Shown here in pieces: positions 3,559-37,905 of a DNA stretch of 64,000 nt (position 1 is its first letter; the number at the start of each line of letters is the position of its first letter). Origin of the DNA: Vulcanimicrobiota bacterium (GTDB taxonomy: Bacteria; Vulcanimicrobiota; Vulcanimicrobiia; Vulcanimicrobiales; Vulcanimicrobiaceae); contig CAWCIZ010000001.1 in the NCBI GenBank assembly GCA_963795855.1, positions 320,001 to 384,000 of the forward strand, read 5' to 3'. Both the position numbers and the translations under genes were made by a program. Under the pieces are notes generated by a model that searched no databases, had not been told where the DNA came from, and saw nothing but the letters and a program-made list of their open reading frames with translations.

Positions 3559-4082
3559 GCGGCCTGACCATCGTAGCGCAGTGTGCCGCCGGCGCGGCGA
3601 ACGCCTTGCGTCAACGCGTGCGGCTGCAGCCGGCCGTTCGCCATGAGGTGCCGCACGTCGATGCCGTGCAGCAGTACGGCAGCGTCGGAAATGAGCCGGC
3701 GGTGGCACCGCCACCACAACGTTTCCGAGCACATGATTGCCGTTTTGCGATGCGACAACGAGTCGACCAGCGAATTCAGGGCGCTCAAAAACCGTTCCGT
3801 TTCCATGTAATCGGCGTATCCGCGAAATGACGGATTGCGCAGCGCCGTATGATGTGAACTCGGTTGCGGGGTGCGGAATCCGCCGAGATCGCGCTCCCAA
3901 ACGTACTCCGCTCCCGCTTCCGCGGGAACCCAGATCGCCATCTTGTCGCCCCACACCCATGGGTGGACGCGACTTTTCGGAACCGTGCGGACATCCACCA
4001 CGCGAGCGATGCCGGCCGCCTGTATCAGGCTTGCGAGTTCGTCCTGCGTAAGTGTGCCGTGCCCGAACGTCAGAAGTTCCAC
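3555..4082 (-). CDS. DUF488 family protein
   Basis: TFGHG, VDVRTVPKSR, LGGFR, IMCSETLWWRCHRRLISD motifs. Confidence 0.88.
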   Translation of the reverse strand: MELLTFGHGTLTQDELASLIQAAGIARVVDVRTVPKSRVHPWVWGDKMAIWVPAEAGAEYVWERDLGGFRTPQPSSHHTALRNPSFRGYADYMETERFLSALNSLVDSLSHRKTAIMCSETLWWRCHRRLISDAAVLLHGIDVRHLMANGRLQPHALTQGVRRAGGTLRYDGQAA

Positions 4083-4246
4083 GTCTACCTGTATATCCGC
4101 TAGCCGCCGCTTTCATACTTGAAGACGCTCTCAATGCGGTCGGTGCATGGCGGCCGTTCGGCCGGTCAGCGCGTCAATGGCATTCGAGCAAGCCGGTAGA
4201 CAGGTGGACGCGCGGTAGCGTAAAATAGCCCGGTCCCCGACAGCAT

Positions 4247-4321
4247 GGGCGCGTAGCTCAGTGGGAGAGCATCCGCTTCACACGCGGGGGGTCGTTGGTT
4301 CAATCCCAACCGTGCCCACCA
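4247..4321 (+). tRNA. tRNA-Val(CAC)
   Basis: cloverleaf GGGCGCG...CGTGCCC-ACCA, anticodon loop TTCACAC, GGTTCAA T-loop. Confidence 0.95.
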
Positions 4322-4392
4322 TTTTGTCGCAGACACGCTTAGAGGTCCGAGTCCGGCGGAGTGCCAATAGTGCTCGCCGGTCTCATGGCGAT

Positions 4393-4469
4393 GGCGCTGT
4401 AGCTCAGTTGGTTAGAGCGCCGCCCTGTCACGGCGGAGGTCGAGGGTTCGAGCCCCTTCAGCGTCGCCA
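4393..4469 (+). tRNA. tRNA-Asp(GTC)
   Basis: cloverleaf GGCGCTG...CAGCGTC-GCCA, anticodon loop CTGTCAC. Confidence 0.96.
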
Positions 4470-4500
4470 TTTTTTCGGACCTCCAACAAGGTTCCGCAAA

Positions 4501-4532
4501 CGAAGAAGCCCCGTAAACACGAGGCTTTTTCG
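4501..4532 (+). terminator. terminator-like hairpin after tRNA-Asp
   Basis: CGAAGAAGCCCCG...CGAGGCTTTTTCG imperfect inverted repeat. Confidence 0.55.
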
Positions 4533-4618
4533 TCTTTTACGGGGCCACGCGCTAAGGCCCGCGAGATGGGAGTATGCCTTTTTGCTGACTACAAAGAACG
4601 ACATAGAATCGCCGGCGC

Positions 4619-4855
4619 TCACGAGTGAAATGCAACAATCAACAGCACCACTACGGCAGCGAGGACTACCGCGCCGCCGATTACCGTAGACAGCACGACC
4701 ATGCCACCGCCGATAAAGCGTATCGCCGGCACACTCGGGTAAAAACGGGACGACTTCAGCCAACCCTCGGCATGGCGTCCAAGCAGAACGATGAACAAAC
4801 CGACGAGCACCCAAAAGCCGCAAATGAAAACTGCGAGCAGCATCATCGGATTCAT
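4619..4855 (-). CDS. small two-TM membrane protein
   Basis: 78 aa with two long hydrophobic segments. Confidence 0.55.
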   Translation of the reverse strand: MNPMMLLAVFICGFWVLVGLFIVLLGRHAEGWLKSSRFYPSVPAIRFIGGGMVVLSTVIGGAVVLAAVVVLLIVAFHS

Positions 4856-5128
4856 TAGGCTTGCGCGTCATCTTGAGGCGCAGGTAGTAATTCCGATAAC
4901 TTTTCGGCTTCTATGCTGGCCCTCTCGATCGCCTTCGGATCTCAGCTATTACTTTCGCGTACTGACTAATCTCCTCGTCCTCGATGCTCTCAGCGGCACC
5001 GCTCGCCTACACGTCAAAGGAGTAGCCTTTGCGAATGCGGTTTCAAAATCTCCTAAGCGATACGTGAAGTCTGTTTCGGAGAGCGTTACATTCTTTAGTG
5101 GTTGCGTCACCAAGTTGCCTTCTTGTGT

Positions 5129-5603
5129 TTATTGACGGTGTGTGAAGGCTTCCGTAGGCGAAACATCGAGCCCGCGTGAGTTCACCCAGTGAACAACGTC
5201 GGCGCCGTCTTGCAAATTGTAGGCCGTGCACTCTGAAATACAATGGAACGAGTGGACGCGCCGCGCCGGTAAGTAGACATAATCACCGGCGTGCAAAGTG
5301 ACGGGTGCTTCTCCTTTGAATTGATGCGACCCGTATCCGCTTATGAGGATTAGCTGCGTATTTGCGGCGTGCCAGTGTGGTGGAATCATGCATCCCGATG
5401 CTATTTTGGCAATCTCCACGGAAGCGCCTCGGCGCGGATCCCCTTCCACCATGGCGACGCGCACGCACGGCGGCAAGAACGGCACTTTAACGAAGCGGGC
5501 GCTTTGGAGTGAAGAGACGTGGGCTGCGGGAGGCTTCTGCGGCCGCCACTCCCGACACCGCAATGATGCCGAGGAGGAGAAACACATATATGGTCGGTCT
5601 CAT
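5129..5603 (-). pseudogene. secreted cupin-domain protein, frameshifted
   Basis: AGGAGG then ATG 5603 gives signal peptide MRPTIYVFLLLGIIAVSGVAAAEA; frameshift near 5535 into the cupin frame (IPPHWH, LHAGDYVYLPARRVHSFHC). Confidence 0.7.
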
Positions 5604-24707: not shown

Positions 24708-26744
24708 TTGGCCGGCGTAGGCGGCGAAACGGCGGAGCGCTTCGCGGAACTCGGCATCCGCACGCCGCTCGACTTGCTGAGCGATTTTCCGTACCGCTAC
24801 GAAGATCTGCGTTATCCGACGCCGGCATCGGCGTTGGGGCTCGGGCGGGGCGAAAATGCCGAGGAAAATGCCGTCGGGCGGATTGTGTGGGTCAAGGAAC
24901 GGCGCGCGCGGCATCTGGCAATCGTGGAAGCGGAACTCGAAGACGAAAGCGGCACGTTCGTTGCAACGTGGTTCGGGCGAACGTATCTCATCGGCGCGCT
25001 GAAGAAAGGGATGCGCCTCTTCGTTCGCGGCCGCGTGCAGCGCACGCTCGCGGGTGCGAAGATGAATGTGGTCACGCATCGCGTGCTCGCGGAGAACGAA
25101 ACGTACACCGGCGAAATCGTGCCGGTGTATTCCGCCAGTAAGACGCTGACGACGCGCAAAATTCATCAAGTGATTTCGCGCAATCTGCCGCACCTGTTGC
25201 TGCTGGCCGTCGAGGATCCGCTGCCGCCATCGATCGTGAGGGAAAAAGCCTTTCCGGCACTCGAGAAGGCTTATCGCGCGATGCATGCGCCGCAAAATCC
25301 GGAGGACGCGGAAAAAGCGCGCGAGCGGTTCATCTTCACCGAGTTTCTCGCGCTTGCGCTTGCCGCGCAGTTGAAGCGCCGCGAACGCAGCTCGGAACAC
25401 ACCGCAGAGCGATTGCGCGCCGCGCCGACGCTGCTTGCCGAATTGGAACGCGAGTTGCCGTTCCCGCTCACGGGCGCCCAGCGGCGCGTCATCACCGAGA
25501 TCTGGGGCGACATGGCGCAGGACGCGCCGATGAACCGGCTTCTGCAGGGCGACGTCGGAAGCGGCAAAACGCTCGTTGCCGCCGCGGCCATTCTGCTTGC
25601 GTCGCGCAGCCGCGTTCAATCCGCACTCATGGCGCCGACGGAAATTCTCGCAGCGCAGCACGCCGCCAAACTCGCGCCGCTTCTGGTTCCCTTCGGCATT
25701 ACGGTCGAAGCCGTCTTCGGAAGTCAGAGCGCCAAAGCGCGCGCCGTCGCGGCGCAGCGCATCGCAAGCGGTGAAGCGCTGCTTGCGGTCGGCACGCATG
25801 CCCTGCTTACCGAGGGCGTGGATTTCAAGCGCCTCGGGCTCGTGGTAATCGACGAGCAGCACCGCTTCGGCGTGCAGCAGCGCGCGCGTTTACGCGCCAA
25901 AGGCGTCGCGCCCCACACGCTTCACATGACGGCGACGCCGATTCCGCGCACGTTGGCGCAATCGATTTACGCGGACTTGGACGTCTCGACCATCGACGAA
26001 TTGCCGCCGGGGCGCACGCCGATCGAAACCTTCGCGCTGCGCCGCACGCGTTTGCATCTGGCGTACGACTTCGTCGAGAAGAACGTTGCCGCGGGACATC
26101 AGGCCTACATAGTAGCGCCCGCGATCGACGAATCGGAAAACGATCTCACGAGCGTCGTCGCGGAAGCCGAGCGTCTGCAGAACGACGTGTTTCCGCATTT
26201 GAAACTCGGACTGCTGCACGGACGGATGACGCCGCGCGAAAAAGAAGACGTGATGCAGCGCTTTTCGCGGAACGACCTGCAGGTGCTCGTGGCGACGACC
26301 GTCATTGAGGTCGGCGTGGACATTCCCAATGCCAGCGTCATGGTGGTGCTCGACGCCAACCGATACGGGCTGGCGCAACTGCATCAGCTGCGCGGCCGGG
26401 TCGGGCGAGGTGCCGCCAAGTCGTATTGCCTGCTCATTGCGCCGGACGAAGCGGGCGAAGTCGAGCGCTTGCAGATCCTGACCGAATCTACGGACGGCTT
26501 CAAGATCGCCGAAGAAGATTTGCAACTGCGGGGGGCGGGCCAGTTCGCCGGCACGGCCCAGTCGGGCAGGACCGAGTTTCGCTTCGGCGACATCGTCCGG
26601 GATTTCGCGCTTTATAAAGAAGCCAGCGCAATCGCTGCGCGGATCGTTCAGGACGATTCGACGCTCGAGCGCGTCGAGCATCGCGGCCTGCGCGCGCTGA
26701 TCGAGGGCGAACCCAGCGCGAGGGCGATGCTCCTGTCGTCTTGA
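24708..26744 (+). CDS. recG: ATP-dependent DNA helicase RecG
   Basis: RLLQGDVGSGKT, MAPTEILA, IDEQHRFG, MTATPIPRTL, QLHQLRGRVGRG; start uncertain. Confidence 0.95.
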   Translation: MAGVGGETAERFAELGIRTPLDLLSDFPYRYEDLRYPTPASALGLGRGENAEENAVGRIVWVKERRARHLAIVEAELEDESGTFVATWFGRTYLIGALKKGMRLFVRGRVQRTLAGAKMNVVTHRVLAENETYTGEIVPVYSASKTLTTRKIHQVISRNLPHLLLLAVEDPLPPSIVREKAFPALEKAYRAMHAPQNPEDAEKARERFIFTEFLALALAAQLKRRERSSEHTAERLRAAPTLLAELERELPFPLTGAQRRVITEIWGDMAQDAPMNRLLQGDVGSGKTLVAAAAILLASRSRVQSALMAPTEILAAQHAAKLAPLLVPFGITVEAVFGSQSAKARAVAAQRIASGEALLAVGTHALLTEGVDFKRLGLVVIDEQHRFGVQQRARLRAKGVAPHTLHMTATPIPRTLAQSIYADLDVSTIDELPPGRTPIETFALRRTRLHLAYDFVEKNVAAGHQAYIVAPAIDESENDLTSVVAEAERLQNDVFPHLKLGLLHGRMTPREKEDVMQRFSRNDLQVLVATTVIEVGVDIPNASVMVVLDANRYGLAQLHQLRGRVGRGAAKSYCLLIAPDEAGEVERLQILTESTDGFKIAEEDLQLRGAGQFAGTAQSGRTEFRFGDIVRDFALYKEASAIAARIVQDDSTLERVEHRGLRALIEGEPSARAMLLSS

Positions 26745-26755
26745 ATTCCGGGCGC

Positions 26756-29428
26756 ATGAACAATGCAGTACGCTTCGTCCGTGCGGCCGCCTTGGTTATC
26801 GGGGCGGCTTTTTTCGCGCATTTGCCCGCGGCGGCGCAGCCGCTTCAAGTGACGCGCGCAACGCTCCGGAATGGTTTGCAAGTCGTGGTCGTTCGCGATC
26901 CGCTCGCGCCGGTGGTCACATCGGTTCTCAATTACCGCGCCGGTTCCAACGAGCAGCAGTTCCCCGGCGAAGCGCACGCCCTCGAACATATGATGTTCCG
27001 CGGCACGCCCGACGTATCGCAAACGCAACTGTTCGAAATCAGCCAGTTGATGGGCGGCGATTACGACGCGGACACGCAAGCGGAAGTCACGCAGTATTTC
27101 TTCCAGGTACCCGCGCAGTATCTGGATGTGGCGCTGCGCGTCGAAGCGGACCGCGCAAAACATGTGACGCTCGCGCAGTCGGGATGGGAAGCCGAGAGCG
27201 GCGCCATCAAACAAGAAGTGACTCAAGACGACAGCGTACCGATCGAAAAGTTGTTTCTTCGCACCATTTTACCGTCGATTTTCAAGGGTACGCCGTATGC
27301 CAAAGACGGCTTGGGCACCCTGTACTCCTTCAATCATCAAATCAACGCAGCCGTGGTGCGCAAGTTCTACGATGCGTGGTACCACCCGAACAACGCGACG
27401 TACGTCATCGCCGGTAATGTCGACGGCCCGTCGACCGTGAAGCTGGTCGAGAAGTATTTCGGAACGATCCCCGCGGCCAAATTGCCGGCGCGCGGCAGAG
27501 TCGTACTGCAGCCGATGAAGTCGGCGACCTACCACGTCGACAGCGATCAGCCGTACTCGATCGTCGCGATGGCATACCGGCTGCCGGGCTGGAAAGACAA
27601 AGATTACGCCGCCGCGCAGATTTTGGAATCGGTGCTGAACAACCAGCGCGGCGACCTCTACGGCTTGGTCGCGTCCGGAAAAGCGCTCTATGCGGGCTTC
27701 CAAGACGTTGAATCCCACGCGTACGCAACGGCGACTGCCGCGCTCTCCATCGTGCCCGTCACGACCAAAGCGGAAAGCGCGGAGGCGGACCTGCGTGCGG
27801 TTCTGCAGGCATATCGCACCAACGGTTTGCCGGCCGATCTGGTCGAAGTCGCGAAGCAGCGCGCGATTGCGGACGCGCAATTCGGTGGCAATTCGATCCA
27901 AGGGTTGGCGTTCGAATGGAGCGATGCCGTTGCCGCGCGCGGCGCGGCGTCGCCCGACGAGTTGATCGACGCGATGAAACGCGTGACCGTTGCCGACGTG
28001 AATCGCGTCTTCCGCGAATACGTGAACCCCGACAAGGCGATCGTCGCGTATGCGGTGCCGAAAAATATCGGCAAAGTGAGTGCCGGCGCCTCCGCTCCGG
28101 CCAAAGAAAACAATACGCTCACGCCGGAAAAGCCGCAGCCGCTTCCGGCTTGGGCGAGCGCCGCATTCTCAAAAGTCGAAGTGCCCGCGGACACGCTGCA
28201 TCCGGTTTCGATGACGCTCGCCAACGGCATGCGCCTCATCGTGGTACCGGAGCATGTGACGAAGACGGTGGAAGTGCACGGCTCCATTCTCTCGGACGAA
28301 GCGATTCAAGCGCCGGCCGATAAACAGGGCGTCGCGGACGTGCTTGCCGGCCTGTTTCCGTTCGGCACCGAGCAATACAGCCGCATTCAACTGCGCCGGC
28401 AGCTGGACCAAATTGCCGCCGACGTCGAAGCGGGAACGGATTTTTCGCTTCGCGTGCTAAGCGATAAATTCGACCGAGGCGTGCAATTGCTCGCGGATGA
28501 GGAACTGCATCCGGCATTGCCCGACGCGGCGTTTCAAATCGTGAAAGGGCAAACGGTCGGGTCGCTCACCGGAGAGATGACGTCTCCCGAACACCTCACG
28601 TCCGTCGCGCTGAACAAGGCGCTCTTCCCGTCCGACGATCCGCTGCAGAAGTTTGCGACGCCGCAAACGGCGAGTGCCGTTGGAATGGACGACGTGAGGT
28701 CGTACTTCGCGAGCGTTTACCGCCCGGACATGACGACCGCCGTCGTCATCGGCGACGTCACGCCGCAGCAAGTGCGCGCGACGTTCGAAAAGTATTTCGG
28801 CGCATGGACCGCGCACGGGCCGAAACCGGACGTGACGCTTCCGCAGGTTCCGAAAAACGACGCGGCGAGCGTCGTCGTTCCGGACGTCGGACGCGTGCAA
28901 TCCGACGTGCAGCTCGCGCAAGTGCTGGACTTGGCGCGCTCCGATCCGGATTGGGCGCTGCTGCAAGTCGCGAACAACGTGCTCGGCGGCGGCGGTTTCG
29001 GCTCGCTGCTCATGGACGACCTTCGCGTCAAACACGGCTACGTCTACGGTGCGTATTCGGAACTGAACTCGAATAAGAATCGCGCGACGTTCGTGTTGGG
29101 ATACGCTTGCGATCCGGACAAGATCGTTCCGGCCCAGCAGCTCGCGCTCGCCGATTTGCGAACGCTGCAGGAAGGCGTCATCTCCGCGGACCGGTTGACG
29201 CGCAGCAAAGCGATGCTGATGAGCGACGTGCCGCTGCGAAGCGCGAGTTTCGACGGCGTCGCTTCCCAATTGCTGCGTTTCGCGTCGTTCGGTCTACCCC
29301 TCGATCAGGCACAAATCGACGCCCAACGGGAACTTCAGGCACAGCCGGCCACGGTGCGGCAAGCCCTGGTGAAATGGGTCAACCCAAGCCGGTTCGTGCG
29401 CGTGGTCCGAGGCCCCGGGCCGAAGTAA
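26756..29428 (+). CDS. secreted M16 (pitrilysin-family) zinc peptidase
   Basis: signal peptide, LRNGL, HALEH (HxxEH), duplicated M16 halves, LRVKHGYVYG. Confidence 0.9.
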   Translation: MNNAVRFVRAAALVIGAAFFAHLPAAAQPLQVTRATLRNGLQVVVVRDPLAPVVTSVLNYRAGSNEQQFPGEAHALEHMMFRGTPDVSQTQLFEISQLMGGDYDADTQAEVTQYFFQVPAQYLDVALRVEADRAKHVTLAQSGWEAESGAIKQEVTQDDSVPIEKLFLRTILPSIFKGTPYAKDGLGTLYSFNHQINAAVVRKFYDAWYHPNNATYVIAGNVDGPSTVKLVEKYFGTIPAAKLPARGRVVLQPMKSATYHVDSDQPYSIVAMAYRLPGWKDKDYAAAQILESVLNNQRGDLYGLVASGKALYAGFQDVESHAYATATAALSIVPVTTKAESAEADLRAVLQAYRTNGLPADLVEVAKQRAIADAQFGGNSIQGLAFEWSDAVAARGAASPDELIDAMKRVTVADVNRVFREYVNPDKAIVAYAVPKNIGKVSAGASAPAKENNTLTPEKPQPLPAWASAAFSKVEVPADTLHPVSMTLANGMRLIVVPEHVTKTVEVHGSILSDEAIQAPADKQGVADVLAGLFPFGTEQYSRIQLRRQLDQIAADVEAGTDFSLRVLSDKFDRGVQLLADEELHPALPDAAFQIVKGQTVGSLTGEMTSPEHLTSVALNKALFPSDDPLQKFATPQTASAVGMDDVRSYFASVYRPDMTTAVVIGDVTPQQVRATFEKYFGAWTAHGPKPDVTLPQVPKNDAASVVVPDVGRVQSDVQLAQVLDLARSDPDWALLQVANNVLGGGGFGSLLMDDLRVKHGYVYGAYSELNSNKNRATFVLGYACDPDKIVPAQQLALADLRTLQEGVISADRLTRSKAMLMSDVPLRSASFDGVASQLLRFASFGLPLDQAQIDAQRELQAQPATVRQALVKWVNPSRFVRVVRGPGPK

Positions 29429-29515: not shown

Positions 29516-31286
29516 ATGGGCGGTACTTTCCCAAGCCTGGACCCAACAGCAACGCGTCCTATGGACTCGGGGGGTGCCGCCATATTTCAGCAAGCGGGCG
29601 CTGACAATCTCGTAGAGCCTTCCCAGCAACACCTTGCTCGTTTGCGCGCTTTGTGGGAGCTGTCGCTCGACCGGCAGAACCACGGGACGCAGATCGAAGG
29701 TTTACTGCAAGAGGCTCGCAGCGCATTGCAATGCGACTACGCGGAGCTTTGGAACGCGCGTTCCGAGCAGCGCGTCGCGTATGCAGGCTCTGACGCATCG
29801 CGCTCGCTCGGCGCGTTGGTAATCGCTGAGGACGTTCCGGCAGACGAACAAGCGATGTTCGTTTTGGAACCGGGTGAAGACGCGCAACTGCAAGCCACGC
29901 TGCGCAGGGCCGGGAAGTCGGCGCTTCTGGTTCGCCGGTTTGAAACGGGACGCGACCGCTACGCAATACTGTTTGCGTGGAGCGAGCGGCGTCCGCGCAC
30001 GCTGAGCCATGCCGAAGAGCAGTACCTCGATTTTCTACAGCACGTTGTCTCGCGCGTGTTGGTGCTTGCGGATAAGCATCGCGAACTTCACGATCGCATC
30101 TCGATCGATCCGCTCACCGGTTTGCAGAATCGCGCAGTCTACGCTCGATCGTATCGGTCATCTCGTTTCGTCCGCGCAGCGCACGCCCTCCGAATTCGCC
30201 GTGCTGTACGTCGATCTGAACGGGTTCAAACAGGTCAATGATTCCCACGGGCATGCCCTAGGCGATCAGGCGATTGCGGAAACGGCCGCGCGCATGCGGG
30301 CCGTGCTTCGCCGCCACGAAATGGCCGGACGGATCGGAGGCGACGAGTTTGCGGTGGTCGTGAAGTTCGACAGCCCCGCGGATTTGGAAGCGGTCGCGCA
30401 ACGCTTGATCGAAGCAATCGCCGAACCAATGACGTTCGGCGGCGTGCGCGTGCGTTTGAATGCCAGTATCGGCATCGCTACGTTTCCCGAGCATGCCGGT
30501 TCGGCGGACGAACTGCTGTCGCGCGCCGACAGCGCGATGTACGTTGCCAAGCGAGGCAACGGGCCGCACTACGCGTTCTACGACCCGCAAAACAAACCGC
30601 GCTTGCCGTCTGCGCCCCCGGTGCACGAAGCCGCGCCGCCGTTCGTGTTTTGCTTTCAGCCAATCGTGGATGCGCGAACGGGCCGCATCGTCGCGGCGGA
30701 AGCGCTCATTCGCTGGTTCGACCCTCTACGCGGGCTCGTGCTGCCGACGGCACTGAACGAGGGCGGCTCGATGCCTCGGCACATCGACCGCAGCGTCGTC
30801 GACACACTCACGCGCGGAGAATACGCGCAGACGCTGCGCGCGCTGCCCATTCACGTCAACGTGAGCGAAGCCGACGACGAATTGCTCGCCGCCTCGTCGG
30901 GCGACGCCGTCATCGCCTTGGAAATTCCGGAATCGCTCGTCGCAAACGAGGCCGATCGGTACGCGGAGTTCATCCGGAACGCGCGCAAGAGCGGCGTGCG
31001 TGTCGGGCTCTCGGATTTCGGCGGAGCCGGTCTGCCGCTGCGGTTTCTCGCCGATCTGCCCATCGACTTCGTGAAGATCGGGAAGATGTCCGCGGTCACG
31101 GCGCGCGCGGCAATCGCGCAAGCGCACCATTTCGGCTGGACCGTCATCGCCGAAAACGTGGAAGAGGAAACGCAGCGTGATTGGCTCGTAAGCGCGGGCG
31201 TCGACGCCGTGCAGGGCTACCAGATCTGCAGCCCGCTGACGCACCGCGATTTCACCAACTGGCTGCGCTATCGGATGCTGAAATAA
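29516..31286 (+). CDS. GAF-like / GGDEF / EAL protein, one frameshift near 30138
   Basis: DPLTGLQNR, then in next frame YVDLNGFKQVNDSHGHALGD, RIGGDEF, AEALIRW, QGY. Confidence 0.9.
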
Positions 31287-33667
31287 TGAGCGCACCTCGG
31301 CTCGCGCGGGATCGGCTCACCGCGCGGTTGCGCGCATCGGCTCGCTATGCAGCAACGGTCGTCTGCGCGCCCGAAGGGTTCGGAAAAACGACTGCGGTGC
31401 GCCAGTACGTGCAAACTCTCGATTGCGAAACGCTCGAACTCGCGCTGCTGCCCGAGCACGGCTCGCTCGCTGCATTCGCGCGCGCTCTCGCGCAGACGCT
31501 GGCGCCGGTCGCACCCGGTTTGGCGTCTTCGTACGCGCACGCGATCGAGTGCGCGCTGCAGTCCGACAAAGCGGAAGAAGAACTCGCGATCTGGTTCCTC
31601 GGGCATCTCGATCGGAAAACCGAGCGGCTCATCGTCGTGGACGATCTGCAGCATGCGAAAGGCGATCCGCGGATCGTTCGGCTCACGGAACGGCTGCTGC
31701 AAGGCGCGCGTCCCGGCTACCGCTGGGTCATCGCCGCGCGCGAACTTCCGGAGGCTCAGCGCTGGACCGCGAACGGCTTGTGCGCACCGGCGATCGACGA
31801 ACTCGAACTGCGCCTCACGCGCGAGGAAATGCGGCAAATCGCCGAGTCGATGGAAATCTCCGCCTCGCTCGCGGAGGCACTATACGGCATGAGCGACGGT
31901 TGGCCGCTGGCGTTCGGCCTCGGCGCGTCCATGCCGGAATGGATCGCGCGGTTGGAGCAGTTGAACCCGGCGAATGCACGCGGGTTGCTCGCCTTTTTGG
32001 CCGAGCAGTTTTTCTTACAATGCGACGCCGCGCTCCAAGGCGTTCTGCTCGATCTTTGCGTATTTGCCACCGTCGACGAACAGATCGCCGCGTTGGCGCC
32101 GTGGCGCGATGCGTGGCCGCAACTGCAGCGTCTCGCTCGAGACGGTCAACTGCTCCTCATGCGGCAAGACGGTTCCATTCAGTTGCGCGAGGTGTTCCGC
32201 CAATTTCTGGACGGCCGCCTGGCCCTGCGCGGTGAAGCCGCAGTGCGGCAGGCGTGTTCCGCCGCCGCGCACGTGCTCGAGTCGGGAGGGCGCGTCGCCG
32301 AAGCGCTTCGCCTCTACGCGCGCGCCAAAGACGACGCGAAAATTCTCGAACTCTGCGAGGAACACGGCTTCGCGCTCGTCGACGAAGGGCGAATCGAAGA
32401 TCTACTGCAGCAACTCGCGGTCATCGATCCGAAGGCGGCGAGCGAGCATCCCGCCGCGCTCTCGATCCACGCTATCGCCGAATCCAACGCGGGTCGCGAC
32501 GACATCGCCGAGTCGTGGTATCTGCTCGCGATCGAGCGCGCCGACACCCCGCAATTGCGCGCAAAAATTGCGTACCGGTACGGGCTCGAATTGGTGCGGC
32601 ACCGCCGCATGGACGGCGTCGCGATCCTCGAGCGCTACGTGGGCGCGGCACTCCCCGCGGACTTGGATGCATCGCTGCGCTCGACGCTGGCGACGGCGTA
32701 CGTGTTGGGCGAACGCTTTGCGGACGCGGGGCGCATGATCGCGACGGCGCTCGCGCTGCTGGATGGGTCATCGTCGAGCCAACTGCGCGCCAAGGTGCTC
32801 CACCACGCCGCGTGGGTGGCGCTCTTTACCGGAGAGGTTCAAGCCGCGAAAACGCAGGCGTCCGAAGCGGTGCGATTGGCTCTCGAGTGCGATATGTACG
32901 AAATCGCGGCGCGCGCGTATTCCGTGCTCTACAACATTTCGTACGACGTCGAAGACGATCCGGAGCGCACGCGCGAAACGCTCGATCGCATTTGGGACTG
33001 CGGCCTCAAAGCGGGCAGCGCGCAGATGCGGTGGTTCGCCCTGCTCGGCAACATCGACATTTGCGCCGAGATGGGCGATCGCAGCGGCCTTGCGGGGATC
33101 GAAAAAGTGCTCGCGGCTCACGGCGTCGATTACGCCGAGCGCGGAACCAGCGAAGCGCTGTTGCCGGCGGAGGCGCTGATGCTTGCCGCGCGCGGCGAAT
33201 TCGCGCACGCGTACGAGATTATTTTTCCGACCGGCGAGCGGCAAGTCACTCCCGATCGGCGCGCGCTGCGTTTCTCGGAGATCGCGTTGTACGCTTCGGC
33301 CGCCGGTCTGGACGAGAAAGCCGATGCGGCGCTCAAAGAAGTGCAGGCCCAACTCCGCGAATGCGACGCTTCGTCACGCCGGGCGATCCGGGCGCAGCTG
33401 AATCGCGCACTAGCCGTGTACCTCGCCGGACGTCGCGCGGAAGCCGCCGAGATCATCGATTACGTCGGGCAGTTCTGCAACGAGATGTCTCCGCGGCTGC
33501 GCGCGCTGTACGACGCGGTTTTAGAGATATTCGCCCACTGGGATGGTGCCGAGAACTACGACCGCGTGTACGATACGCTCGCGCGCCTCAAGGCCGCGCA
33601 CTTCGGCGGCGTCGCCGCGGCGATCGCCGCGCTTCCATGCAGCAGAGAGCAGGTGTCGGTTGCATAA
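31286..33667 (+). CDS. MalT-like STAND ATPase with TPR-like helical region, no C-terminal HTH
   Basis: RDRL, Walker A APEGFGKTT, Walker B LIVVDDLQ, ELRLTREE, SDGWPLA; ATG overlaps upstream stop (TAATG). Confidence 0.85.
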   Translation: MSAPRLARDRLTARLRASARYAATVVCAPEGFGKTTAVRQYVQTLDCETLELALLPEHGSLAAFARALAQTLAPVAPGLASSYAHAIECALQSDKAEEELAIWFLGHLDRKTERLIVVDDLQHAKGDPRIVRLTERLLQGARPGYRWVIAARELPEAQRWTANGLCAPAIDELELRLTREEMRQIAESMEISASLAEALYGMSDGWPLAFGLGASMPEWIARLEQLNPANARGLLAFLAEQFFLQCDAALQGVLLDLCVFATVDEQIAALAPWRDAWPQLQRLARDGQLLLMRQDGSIQLREVFRQFLDGRLALRGEAAVRQACSAAAHVLESGGRVAEALRLYARAKDDAKILELCEEHGFALVDEGRIEDLLQQLAVIDPKAASEHPAALSIHAIAESNAGRDDIAESWYLLAIERADTPQLRAKIAYRYGLELVRHRRMDGVAILERYVGAALPADLDASLRSTLATAYVLGERFADAGRMIATALALLDGSSSSQLRAKVLHHAAWVALFTGEVQAAKTQASEAVRLALECDMYEIAARAYSVLYNISYDVEDDPERTRETLDRIWDCGLKAGSAQMRWFALLGNIDICAEMGDRSGLAGIEKVLAAHGVDYAERGTSEALLPAEALMLAARGEFAHAYEIIFPTGERQVTPDRRALRFSEIALYASAAGLDEKADAALKEVQAQLRECDASSRRAIRAQLNRALAVYLAGRRAEAAEIIDYVGQFCNEMSPRLRALYDAVLEIFAHWDGAENYDRVYDTLARLKAAHFGGVAAAIAALPCSREQVSVA

Positions 33668-34589
33668 CGAGTTGCTGCGCGAGAAAATCTCGCGCCGCGC
33701 GTTGTCTCGCGCGCTTCCGCCCGAGCACCGCTCCATTCTCGCCGAAGTCGTTGCGAAGCGCACTGCCGACCGTATCGTCGCATGGACGTCCGACAAGGAC
33801 GTGAGCCGCGTATTTTCATGGGTGGACTCGGTGCTGCACGATCATCCGCAGCAACGGCGCCTCTACGGCCTGCTATCGTCGACCGTGAGCGCCGCGCTGG
33901 ACGTTCTCTCGGAAGAAACCCGCGTTCCGGTGCAATTACGCTCGAATCTCACGAGCCTGCAGCAGCGCATCGACATACATGTCGGCGCGTACTGCGTGCA
34001 GAACCACGACGGCGTCCTGCAAACCGTCGACCCGGTCGACGCGCGAATCGACGAGTTGTTGCTGCGCTTGTCGACTCAGGACACGCTCACCGCGGAGCAC
34101 TCACGCTCGGTCGGCATGTGGTGCTGGCGCGTGGCCAAACGTCTCGACCTTTCGCGGAGCGAATCGTACATCGTGACGCGCAGCGGTTTGCTGCACGACA
34201 TCGGCAAGACGCTGACCCCGCTCGAGATCCTTATCGCGCCGCGCGCGCTCACCAACGATGAATGGGAGATTATGCGCCGCCACGCCGCCGAGGGCGAGCA
34301 GATGGTGCGGCAGTCGGCCGAACTGCATACGTTCGCGCCCGCAGTGCGCTCGCATCACGAGCGTTTCGACGGCCGCGGTTATCCGGATGGATTAGAGCGC
34401 GGCTCGATTCCATTCTCCGCGCGCATCGTTTCCGTGGCGGATGCATTCAATGCGATGATTGCCCGGCGTCCCTACCGGGCGCCCTTGCCCCCGACGCATG
34501 CCATCGAGGAGCTCAAACGAAACAGCGGGACCCAATTCGATCCCGCTGTCGTCGAAGCTATGATTGACGTGGTGCTTAGTGGCGGATAA
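33660..34589 (+). CDS. HD-GYP c-di-GMP phosphodiesterase
   Basis: EHSRSV, LLHDIGK, HHERFDGRGYPDGL, VADAFNAM, RPYR; TTG 33660 overlaps upstream gene end. Confidence 0.92.
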   Translation: MHNELLREKISRRALSRALPPEHRSILAEVVAKRTADRIVAWTSDKDVSRVFSWVDSVLHDHPQQRRLYGLLSSTVSAALDVLSEETRVPVQLRSNLTSLQQRIDIHVGAYCVQNHDGVLQTVDPVDARIDELLLRLSTQDTLTAEHSRSVGMWCWRVAKRLDLSRSESYIVTRSGLLHDIGKTLTPLEILIAPRALTNDEWEIMRRHAAEGEQMVRQSAELHTFAPAVRSHHERFDGRGYPDGLERGSIPFSARIVSVADAFNAMIARRPYRAPLPPTHAIEELKRNSGTQFDPAVVEAMIDVVLSGG

Positions 34590-34893
34590 CCGACGAAATC
34601 CACCGCAAGTCGATCATCATCGGCGGAAGTCCCGCAACGCCGCTGATCATGACGAGCTTCGGAACGGCGCTCACGCTGTCCATCGGCTGAACTTTCGGCA
34701 CGGCACTGACGCTGTCCATCGGCTGAATCTTCGGCACGGCGCTGACGCTGTCCATCGGCTGAACTTTCGGCACGGCACTGACGCTGTCCATCGGCTGAAT
34801 CTTCGGCACGGCGCTCACGCTGTCGGCCATTGCCGGCGCTGCGGCGCAGACAACCGCGATTGTTCCAAAAATGAGGGTGCGATACGAAGTCAT
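34576..34893 (-). CDS. secreted multi-repeat peptide precursor (105 aa)
   Basis: GGAGG RBS and ATG 34893; signal peptide ending AMA; five DSVSAVPK units joined by (I/V)QPM. Confidence 0.85.
   Translation of the reverse strand: MTSYRTLIFGTIAVVCAAAPAMADSVSAVPKIQPMDSVSAVPKVQPMDSVSAVPKIQPMDSVSAVPKVQPMDSVSAVPKLVMISGVAGLPPMMIDLRWISSVIRH
34657..34824. repeat. 36-bp tandem repeat, four full units plus a 24-bp partial unit
   Basis: units start at 34681, 34717, 34753, 34789; alternating A/B variants. Confidence 0.97.
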
Positions 34894-35009
34894 AACGGCC
34901 TCCCAGAGCAGCAAGAGCCAATTACTGAAATCGTAGCGGTTCAAGGGCGAAACGGCATCTCGCATGACGATCAGAAGTTTGCTTGCTATCGGGAGAGAAT
35001 CTATCAGAA

Positions 35010-35579
35010 ATGCTAGATAGAGCCCACGCTCTTGAAGCGGAAGATCAACGCGCTCCACTGCTTCCCGAACAAGCAGCAGTTCTTGCGCGGCGCGCCACGC
35101 CGACGCTGTTCGTCGTGGACCGTCAGTTGCGTGTGCTGTATTGGCGCGCCGATCCGTCGGAGAGGCGCAAGGACCTGCTGCCGCTCGAGAACGGCGGTTT
35201 GCCGCCACTGCTCGAGTACTCGCTGCTCAAGCTCTTCGCTCACGAGCATGCGAGCGCCGACGGCGTGCGCCGCGCCGGCGTGACCGGTTCCGTGGCGATC
35301 CGCGTGCTGGAACTCTGCGGCGGCGGCTCGGGAGCAGCCTATGCGGTTCTCGTCGAGCGCATCGGGGTTCGCGATCAGTTGCTCGCCGTCGCCTCCCGCT
35401 ACGGACTTTCGACGCGCGAACGGCAAGTGCTCAACCTCGTGGTAAAAGGGCTTCGGAACGAGGAGATCGCCGAGCACCTGTGCATCTCCAAATCGACTGC
35501 CATCTTTCACGTGAAGCAACTTTTGATCAAGACCAAGTCCCGGAACCGGACGGAGGTCGTCGCGAAGATCATTGGCTAG
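35010..35579 (+). CDS. LuxR-family HTH regulator with PAS-like N-terminus
   Basis: GLSTRERQVLNLVVKGLRNEEIAEHLCISKSTAIFHVKQLLIKT; TLFVVDRQLRVLYW. Confidence 0.9.
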   Translation: MLDRAHALEAEDQRAPLLPEQAAVLARRATPTLFVVDRQLRVLYWRADPSERRKDLLPLENGGLPPLLEYSLLKLFAHEHASADGVRRAGVTGSVAIRVLELCGGGSGAAYAVLVERIGVRDQLLAVASRYGLSTRERQVLNLVVKGLRNEEIAEHLCISKSTAIFHVKQLLIKTKSRNRTEVVAKIIG

Positions 35580-37345: not shown

Positions 37346-37905
37346 ATGTCGGTTTATCGCGTTCTGGAAAAGCTCGAGGGTTACGTGCAGGAAGGCACGT
37401 GGCTGCCCGCAGGCTACCGCATTTTGAGCGAAGAGCGGCTCGTCGAGTTCATCGAGAAAATCCGCGCCTCGCTTCCGGAGGAAGTGGGACGAGCAAGATT
37501 ATCGCCAAGGATCAAGAGCGCATGATTCGCGCCGCGCAAGAGAAGGCGCAAGCGATCGTCACGGAGGCGACGTCGAAGCATCAGGAACTCGTCGACGATC
37601 ACGAGATCGTGGATCGCGCGCGTAAAACTGCGGACACGGTACTTCGCGAAGCGGAAGAACGCGCGCGGAAAGTGCGCGAAGGCGCCGATCAGTACGCGAC
37701 GCAGTTGCTCGGCGAGCTCGAGGCGCGCCTATCCGGCGCGCTCGGATCCGTGAGAAAAGGGCGAGAAGCGCTCGCTCCTCGACCGCCCGCGTCCCGTCCG
37801 CCGGCGCCGCTCGCCGAAGCTGCTGCTAAAAGCAAACGAGCCGCGTTCGATGCACAGGCCTCGGAAGAAACGGCCGCTCTGGAGTCGGTAGAACTGGTAC
37901 AATAG
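37346..37905 (+). CDS. coiled-coil protein of the kind often found after coaD, frameshift near 37490
   Basis: GGGAGG RBS; IRASLPEE...AQEKAQAIV...GADQYA...GREAL. Confidence 0.75.

Follow-up and report, generated by a model that had tools for sequence, protein, structure and literature searches.

Does a STAND ATPase that carries a TPR sensor read, as a self-made signal, the product of a small repeat-peptide gene encoded beside it? This question was raised by the locus at positions 29516 to 35579 of a window of 64,000 nucleotides (G000:C1:320001-384000, G000 being the source genome, a Vulcanimicrobiota bacterium). The initial annotation had proposed that the peptide is exported, processed and sensed by the STAND protein, with output through cyclic di-GMP (c-di-GMP) enzymes and a LuxR regulator. 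Sequence comparison indicated that the locus probably encodes a peptide signal together with an NLR-class receptor through which the producing organism reads it, the output being c-di-GMP, and the two genes were well supported by this comparative evidence as a putative peptide-receptor pair. The STAND gene (31286..33667, plus strand, 793 residues) starts at an ATG (31286-31288) that overlaps the TAA (31284-31286) of a GGDEF-EAL gene, and the HD-GYP gene (33660..34589, plus strand, 309 residues; Pfam HD_5, 1.8e-34) starts from a TTG at 33660 within the last STAND codons (stop, 33667). The precursor gene (34576..34893, minus strand, 105 residues) converges with this trio, overlaps the HD-GYP end at 34589 by 14 nt and is divergent from the gene for a regulator with a PAS-like domain and a LuxR helix-turn-helix (HTH) (35010..35579, plus strand, 189 residues). 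The gap between the divergent genes is 116 nt with the ATG at 35010, the likeliest LuxR start in an orthologue alignment. These overlaps and orientations confirmed the candidate peptide-signalling locus as the initial annotation had observed it, and its interpretation was supported overall.

The precursor gene specifies a leader, five cores and a C-terminal tail. Residues 1 to 23 (34825..34893, minus strand) form a signal-peptide-type leader by alignment and a census of hydrophobicity and charge, with a basic start, an uncharged hydrophobic stretch and an Ala-X-Ala end immediately preceding core 1. The five identical 7-residue cores (residues 24-30, 36-42, 48-54, 60-66 and 72-78; 34660..34824, minus strand) each have Asp first and Pro last and are separated by 5-residue spacers, the DNA forming a tandem array at 34657-34824 with a period of 36 nt (4.7 copies; score, 273). 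Among identical core copies in 18 genes, third positions accounted for 96 of 99 variable nucleotide columns, a count that is conditioned on identical residues and shows synonymous drift under a fixed peptide; three of the four variable columns in the window's own 36-nt units were third positions. A census of the region 5' of the gene in 25 loci detected a ribosome-binding-like site (34899-34903 in the window) in 24 and a -10-like hexamer (34930-34935; whole element 34899..34935, minus strand) in 21, against a background of 2.5% for the hexamer. A sigma-70 consensus scan upstream of the precursor found no full promoter, and terminator-like sites were no commoner than chance. The synonymous drift, the ribosome-binding-like site and the -10-like hexamer indicated that the precursor is a real gene. 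A Pfam Drf_FH1 match on the precursor fell below the cut-off and was taken as compositional.

The proposed receptor was assigned by a Pfam AAA_22 match and by structure. An AlphaFold2 (AF2) model (pLDDT, 90; pTM, 0.85) comprised a NOD, an arm and about ten TPR helix pairs (TPR domain at about residues 381 to 786), and the top Foldseek matches were MalT (8bob) and PH0952 (6mfv), with VIA Z scores of 34.8 (root mean square deviation of 2.9 over 382 residues) and 26.2, respectively. The match to MalT showed the presence of an NBD-HD-WHD module followed by an arm and a repeat sensor. The Pfam TPR match was weak, and the TPR assignment was backed by structural matches to TPR proteins. Walker A and B were intact. 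The NCBIfam MalT score of 82.6 bits was below the cut-off of 537, and searches of Pfam and NCBIfam detected no DNA-binding domain or C-terminal LuxR HTH in the window protein. The proposed receptor thus has a MalT-like fold but is not MalT.

The distribution of the receptor was examined among relatives, the named ones being metagenome-assembled genomes of Ca. Baltobacteraceae or Eremiobacterota (NCBI rank Vulcanimicrobiaceae). With a STAND profile, matches at an E value of 1e-100 or better were obtained in 212 of 348 family genomes, a tally for which two candidates were scored per genome and seven unpublished genomes were included. Loci were sampled from 100 listed regions, with the best scores favoured, together with earlier loci and 42 metagenome loci, and 160 receptors were kept after removal of duplicates, split TPR regions and unpublished loci. 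One of the 160, L119, apparently belongs to an unpublished genome (G202) and may underlie one of the clade B pairs. The window cassette falls in clade A, which contained 22 receptors and, in addition, three loci that were split or partial, and had an SH-aLRT support of 100 on a 73-row tree. The HD-GYP gene, the LuxR gene and a leader-bearing open reading frame (ORF) were each present in 25 of 25 clade A loci, which were themselves defined by STAND score. The linkage of STAND homologues to a peptide gene, an expectation of the initial annotation, was found at each of these orthologous loci. The flanks of these cassettes differed between genera. Weak precursor-profile matches in three other genomes (G160, G127 and G054) were not this cassette.

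Precursors at the 25 loci ranged from 40 to 189 residues, compared with 10 to 100 in RRNPP systems, and length was driven by repeat number, with up to eight core copies per precursor. The core sequence differed between lineages. A signal-like leader was detected in 23 of the 25 by charge and hydrophobicity. L127 has a leader of the clade A kind with a lipobox. The precursors at L093 (2080-2208) and L094 (near 5370-5490) are 40 to 42 residues long with three charged leader residues and two Cys-containing cores; these are possibly non-secreted, intracellular versions. In the subclade nearest the window (L031, L032, L033, L081, L082, L083, L123 and L125), a gene for a family-5 solute-binding protein lies two genes upstream, a label that comes from Pfam for L081 and from resemblance for the other seven loci; it is a candidate importer or marks a shared insertion site.

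The window cassette belongs to a larger family with several forms. In the commonest form, clade B (109 receptors; SH-aLRT of 98 on a thinned set), a C-terminal LuxR HTH is fused to the STAND protein and the peptide is fused to an S53 protease: the STAND gene adjoins a gene for a lipoprotein with a kumamolisin-like domain (PDB match, E value of 9e-13; catalytic motifs in 91 to 92 of 92). Pfam and NCBIfam gave no match for this repeat-bearing lipoprotein, and the S53 label was drawn from the PDB match and the motifs. Its N terminus bears Gly-separated 7-mers, and a core was called at 100 of the 109 loci, with two or more copies in 83. The same rule called a core in only two of 338 background windows of the source genome, one of which was that genome's own clade B locus. 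That locus (G000:C3:614967-618752) encodes a frameshifted STAND-LuxR HTH protein, an S53 lipoprotein with three different cores, a second S53-like protein and a small protein which we take to be anti-sigma-antagonist-like. A third group of 29 receptors, group C, was not a single clade and combined STAND with HD-GYP and sometimes S53. At L190 (from G274), an S53 gene at 3882-5327, upstream of the STAND-HD-GYP pair, has repeated Asp-to-Pro words inside the protease domain and not at the N terminus. At four sister-family loci, the STAND gene was followed by one for a lipoprotein of about 50 residues with a single Asp-to-Pro 7-mer. A distant STAND-HTH gene was also seen at L022, L024, L025 and L026 (sister family f2) and at L047, with small lipoprotein ORFs containing one or two core-like words next in order and an HD-GYP-like gene after them; the HD-GYP-like enzyme of L025 has altered motifs. 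The STAND protein was the only protein common to all forms. Of 80 genomes from outside the order, 19 gave matches, none of which extended beyond model position 618, and hence the C-terminal part of the sensor was not found in the 80 genomes searched.

These architectures also bear on whether the precursor is the source of a natural product, cyclic or otherwise modified, that is controlled or sensed by the regulators. Such a product would fit the repetition of the cores, the conserved tail, the subtilase-clan protease linked to the core in sister loci and a match to a prolyl-oligopeptidase N-domain in the source genome, and cyanobactins, with their serine-protease processing, offer a comparison for Pro-ended cores. 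However, the clade A cassettes as called contain no tailoring enzyme (one might act in trans), core 1 directly follows the leader, and several orthologues have another tail or none; we regard a natural product as quite improbable.

Co-variation of cores with TPR helices, which the initial annotation had put forward as a check, was found. Cores were called by rule and were not hand curated, so that some of the single-copy or variant ones, though few, may be misregistered or missed. Rows were dropped for L036, L086 and L092, in which the rule took a noncore word, for loci with split or cut TPR regions, for duplicates and for six loci of unpublished genomes. The remaining 123 receptor-core pairs contained 89 distinct cores, and the 116 pairs with a full N terminus were used for co-change tests on trees (7 of the 123 being left out). 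Core changes coincided with changes in the first (A) TPR helices on three trees (mean z of 0.44, 0.34 and 0.30; P values of 0.0007 to 0.0023), whereas the mean z for the second (B) helices ranged from -0.08 to 0.05 and that for the NOD was negative. For 92 clade B pairs, the core value was 0.47 compared with -0.05 ± 0.10 for 300 matched pseudotraits drawn from S53 columns, none of which reached the observed value.

The columns ranked highest for the first core residue were R662, R698 and R699, with R662 first of 751 columns on all three trees. Arg658, Arg662, Arg699 and Arg702 of the TPR sensor (33257..33391, plus strand) are predicted to recognize a core through its first residue where this is acidic. 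Basic residues occupied positions 662, 699 and 702 together in every one of the 93 receptors with an acidic-first core, compared with 7 of the 30 others. Changes at 658, 662, 699 and 702 fell on nonacidic branches in 18 of 18 or 20 of 21 cases, while those branches carried 27% of substitutions.

The co-change results bear on a reading in which the regulators are simply accompanied by the repeat protein, itself a protease linker or a low-complexity protein of the envelope. Many secreted proteins contain Pro-rich repeats, and kin share neighbours. Set against this are the fixed 7-residue unit, which recurs in three precursor architectures, the synonymous drift under a fixed peptide, the region specificity of the co-change with its negative control, and the 2 in 338 background; together, these render a passive repeat protein extremely improbable. 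The STAND protein could instead read the same peptide as an internal or envelope reporter, of failed export or of a core freed in the periplasm by an acid-activated S53 protease. Sedolisins are acid active, two precursors (L093 and L094) keep two cores behind a charged nonsignal leader, many precursors are lipoproteins and hence membrane anchored, and the presence of an Omp85 gene means that a released peptide would need to cross an outer membrane. Diverse lineage-specific cores with matching receptor change are, however, expected of private cell-to-cell channels and less needed for a self-monitor, and up to eight copies per precursor suggest amplification of a signal. A reporter role thus appears unlikely, and exchange of the peptide between cells is the preferred reading.

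Several observations weigh against a peptide signal read by the STAND sensor. The terminal Pro is built into the core-calling rule, the roles of the A and B helices come from DSSP and the TPR convention that first helices line the groove rather than from coordinates, and the arginine columns were picked post hoc, after the column scan. No TPR column survived family-wise correction (best, R662 at 0.07), and the sole column that did was V38 of the nucleotide-binding domain (0.015). An independent-pairs test was nonsignificant (median P value of 0.25) with only five pairs. The co-change signal came mostly from clade B; in clade A alone, an underpowered set of 18 loci, P values were 0.032 for the A helices, 0.059 for the B helices and 0.079 for the HD-GYP N-domain, and three clade A receptors keep all of the arginines despite a nonacidic core. 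Two precursors have charged leaders, no core was called near 25 of the 29 group C paralogues (a core being called in four), and Walker A and B are degenerate in the fused receptors L089, L091 and L092, which suggests that these fusions may signal without ATP turnover.

The divergent regulator provides another potential sensor, the peptide being read by the PAS-LuxR protein or by an unlinked membrane receptor while the STAND protein senses another ligand. Divergent regulator-peptide layouts are common in streptococcal systems. Besides a Pfam GerE match, an AF2 model (pLDDT, 81) had EL222 and VqmA as its top Foldseek matches (15 to 17% identity), and VqmA is an autoinducer receptor. The LuxR N-domain, however, showed no co-change with cores in clade A (mean z of -0.31; P value of 0.99), clade B has cores yet only a bare HTH fused to the STAND protein, and the charge pairing sits in the STAND protein. 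Sensing of the peptide away from the STAND protein is accordingly very unlikely. Alignment of 21 LuxR orthologues detected a conserved RxD-x3-RxxD/E stretch in the N-terminal domain (35145..35174, plus strand), in which D48, E51 and R53 were invariant, R46 was present in 19, R52 in 20 and D/E55 in 20. The stretch was not seen in two paralogous regulators of the source genome; as a lead only, it is a possible c-di-GMP contact. Near a paralogous PAS-LuxR gene and a cupin-like gene fragment, a 50-residue ORF with two Cys (G000:C2:108622-108774) resembles a precursor of a ribosomally synthesized and posttranslationally modified peptide.

Of the c-di-GMP enzymes, the HD-GYP protein was the constant partner of the STAND protein in the cassette and the GGDEF-EAL protein the loosest, a refinement of the initial annotation. 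The HD and HHExxDGxGYP metal-binding motifs were present in 21 of 21 unsplit HD-GYP orthologues, and an intact phosphodiesterase is predicted. In one genus (L084, L089, L091 and L092), HD-GYP is fused to STAND as one ORF, probably through a single event. Atlas searches of the N-domains of HD-GYP and LuxR found no convincing family; scores for the HD-GYP domain of about 125 residues were 0.81 or lower, a globin or RsbRD_N likeness being a weak lead only. The GGDEF-EAL gene (29516..31286, plus strand; start codon uncertain) encodes an N-terminal domain, to which no Pfam family was matched and for which GAF-like is a tentative label, followed by GGDEF (Pfam, 7e-33) and EAL (1.4e-30) domains, and it was present at 21 of 25 loci, upstream, downstream or inverted; of the four loci without it, three were no longer than 5 kb. 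The GGDEF motif was retained in 16 of 18 examined orthologues. An active EAL phosphodiesterase is marked by a canonical DDFG in loop 6 and acidic residues downstream of it. The first Asp of this DDFG is replaced in the window, the D-F-G pattern was found in 2 of the 18, and the EAL domain looks degenerate from these motifs. In the window, the gene is split by one frameshift near 30136-30138, located by a frame switch in tblastn and a one-base gap relative to an orthologue from the same genus. Among relatives whose assemblies consist of many short contigs, most have a single ORF of about 565 to 580 residues, and the same kind of split occurred in 5 of 33 tested genes of the source genome, so the frameshift is probably an assembly error. 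Another sign of assembly indels lies at 37346-37905, where ORFs of 59 and 127 residues correspond to a single 174-residue ORF in same-genus G005.

A working model can be assembled from these elements. The precursor would be exported by Sec and cleaved directly before core 1, and a protease acting in trans would trim after Pro. S53 enzymes are candidates for this step because in sister systems the core is part of an S53 lipoprotein. The Pro-ended heptapeptide would then re-enter through an oligopeptide ABC transporter. The source genome has an Omp85 gene, S53 genes and 26 SBP_bac_5 matches (which are not copy numbers), and an export and re-import route is therefore possible. Within the cell, the peptide would bind the TPR groove, with its acidic first residue at Arg658, Arg662, Arg699 and Arg702 and its Pro end near Arg543 and Trp510, and the NOD would open as in MalT. 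The STAND protein would control the adjacent HD-GYP protein, an effector replacing the HTH, and hence c-di-GMP, with either direction of effect. We suggest only tentatively that the PAS-LuxR regulator senses c-di-GMP and exerts feedback at the promoter shared by the divergent genes, and that GGDEF-EAL sets the opposing level. An M16 peptidase gene (about 890 residues; signal-like N terminus) directly precedes both STAND-HD-GYP loci of contig C1 (window 26741-29428; G000:C1:56156-58834). Among orthologous cassettes, this neighbour was shared only by G005, and the peptidase is a possible processing enzyme or a chance flank.

On balance, we lean towards a broader proposal in which evolution in a diderm soil order would have produced, separately from RRNPP, a large set of peptide communication channels with NLR-class ATPase receptors. 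In this family, 89 or more heptapeptide variants would be matched by TPR grooves that co-evolve with them, the precursors would be free secreted repeats, tiny lipoproteins or fusions to an S53 protease, and the output would run through a fused LuxR or c-di-GMP enzymes, closed at this locus by a PAS-LuxR reading c-di-GMP. The ligands of characterized bacterial STANDs are metabolites or phage proteins, and quorum sensing by peptides in the cytoplasm has been described from Gram-positive RRNPP receptors. A STAND protein reading a self-made peptide would, if true, join STAND sensing with peptide quorum sensing and extend intracellular peptide signalling to a diderm, mostly uncultured phylum, tied directly to c-di-GMP. 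The 123 natural receptor-core pairs would serve directly as a specificity code, in which the charge pair can be tested, and possibly as a source of orthogonal peptide switches. Such a system was not found described in the accessible portions of the open-access literature, a scope that lies outside subscription journals and supplements, and this clade might appear in the STAND family tables of PMC13581612. The available part of that paper makes no mention of Eremiobacter, HD-GYP, LuxR or quorum, its one term match lying in the reference list.

Among known systems, the regulator resembles VqmA and EL222 in joining a PAS-like domain to a LuxR HTH, and it differs from them in its conserved Arg/Asp motif. 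The c-di-GMP signature of BldD is RXD-X8-RXXD (PMC4151990, in excerpt). The LuxR stretch likewise has two Arg/Asp motifs in the same order, but with a spacing of 3 rather than 8, often Glu for the last Asp, and a different fold. Among the Foldseek matches of the STAND protein was Avs3. Avs-type STANDs have cell-killing effectors, whereas at this locus the STAND protein has regulatory partners and its ligand would be a product of the same organism. In Avs-related STAND receptors, a TPR sensor binds polypeptide ligands, namely, phage proteins (PMC13581612, available portion). STANDs of the MalT/PH0952 class undergo inducer-triggered opening, the inducer of MalT being maltotriose (PMC6468293, in extract). 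The window protein shares their NOD-arm-TPR architecture, and clade B even has the MalT domain order with a C-terminal LuxR HTH; unlike MalT, the window STAND lacks the HTH and is linked to a co-varying, self-encoded peptide.

The closest parallel in logic is with RRNPP systems, whose signature is a small Sec-type propeptide, a short core, a cytoplasmic TPR receptor and intragenic core duplication (PMC10075063, in the part accessible). Like Rap/Phr, NprR/NprX, PlcR/PapR and AimR/AimP, the window pairs a repeated-core propeptide with a TPR protein, and NprR, PlcR, RapH and AimR matched the TPR part of the STAND protein at Z scores of 12 to 14, a level common for helical repeats. The differences are several. 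The putative receptor is a 793-residue STAND with a NOD, compared with 250 to 500 residues for an RRNPP receptor, and the HD-GYP gene lies between the receptor and precursor genes, which are adjacent only in the STAND-HD-GYP fusions. The host is outside the Firmicutes and has an Omp85 gene, the output would be HD-GYP or a fused LuxR HTH, and in sister forms the putative signal is attached to a protease of their own. The locus thus appears to work like an RRNPP system but departs from the RRNPP signature and is not a member; since the logic is parallel, the novelty lies in the receptor class, the precursor designs and the output.

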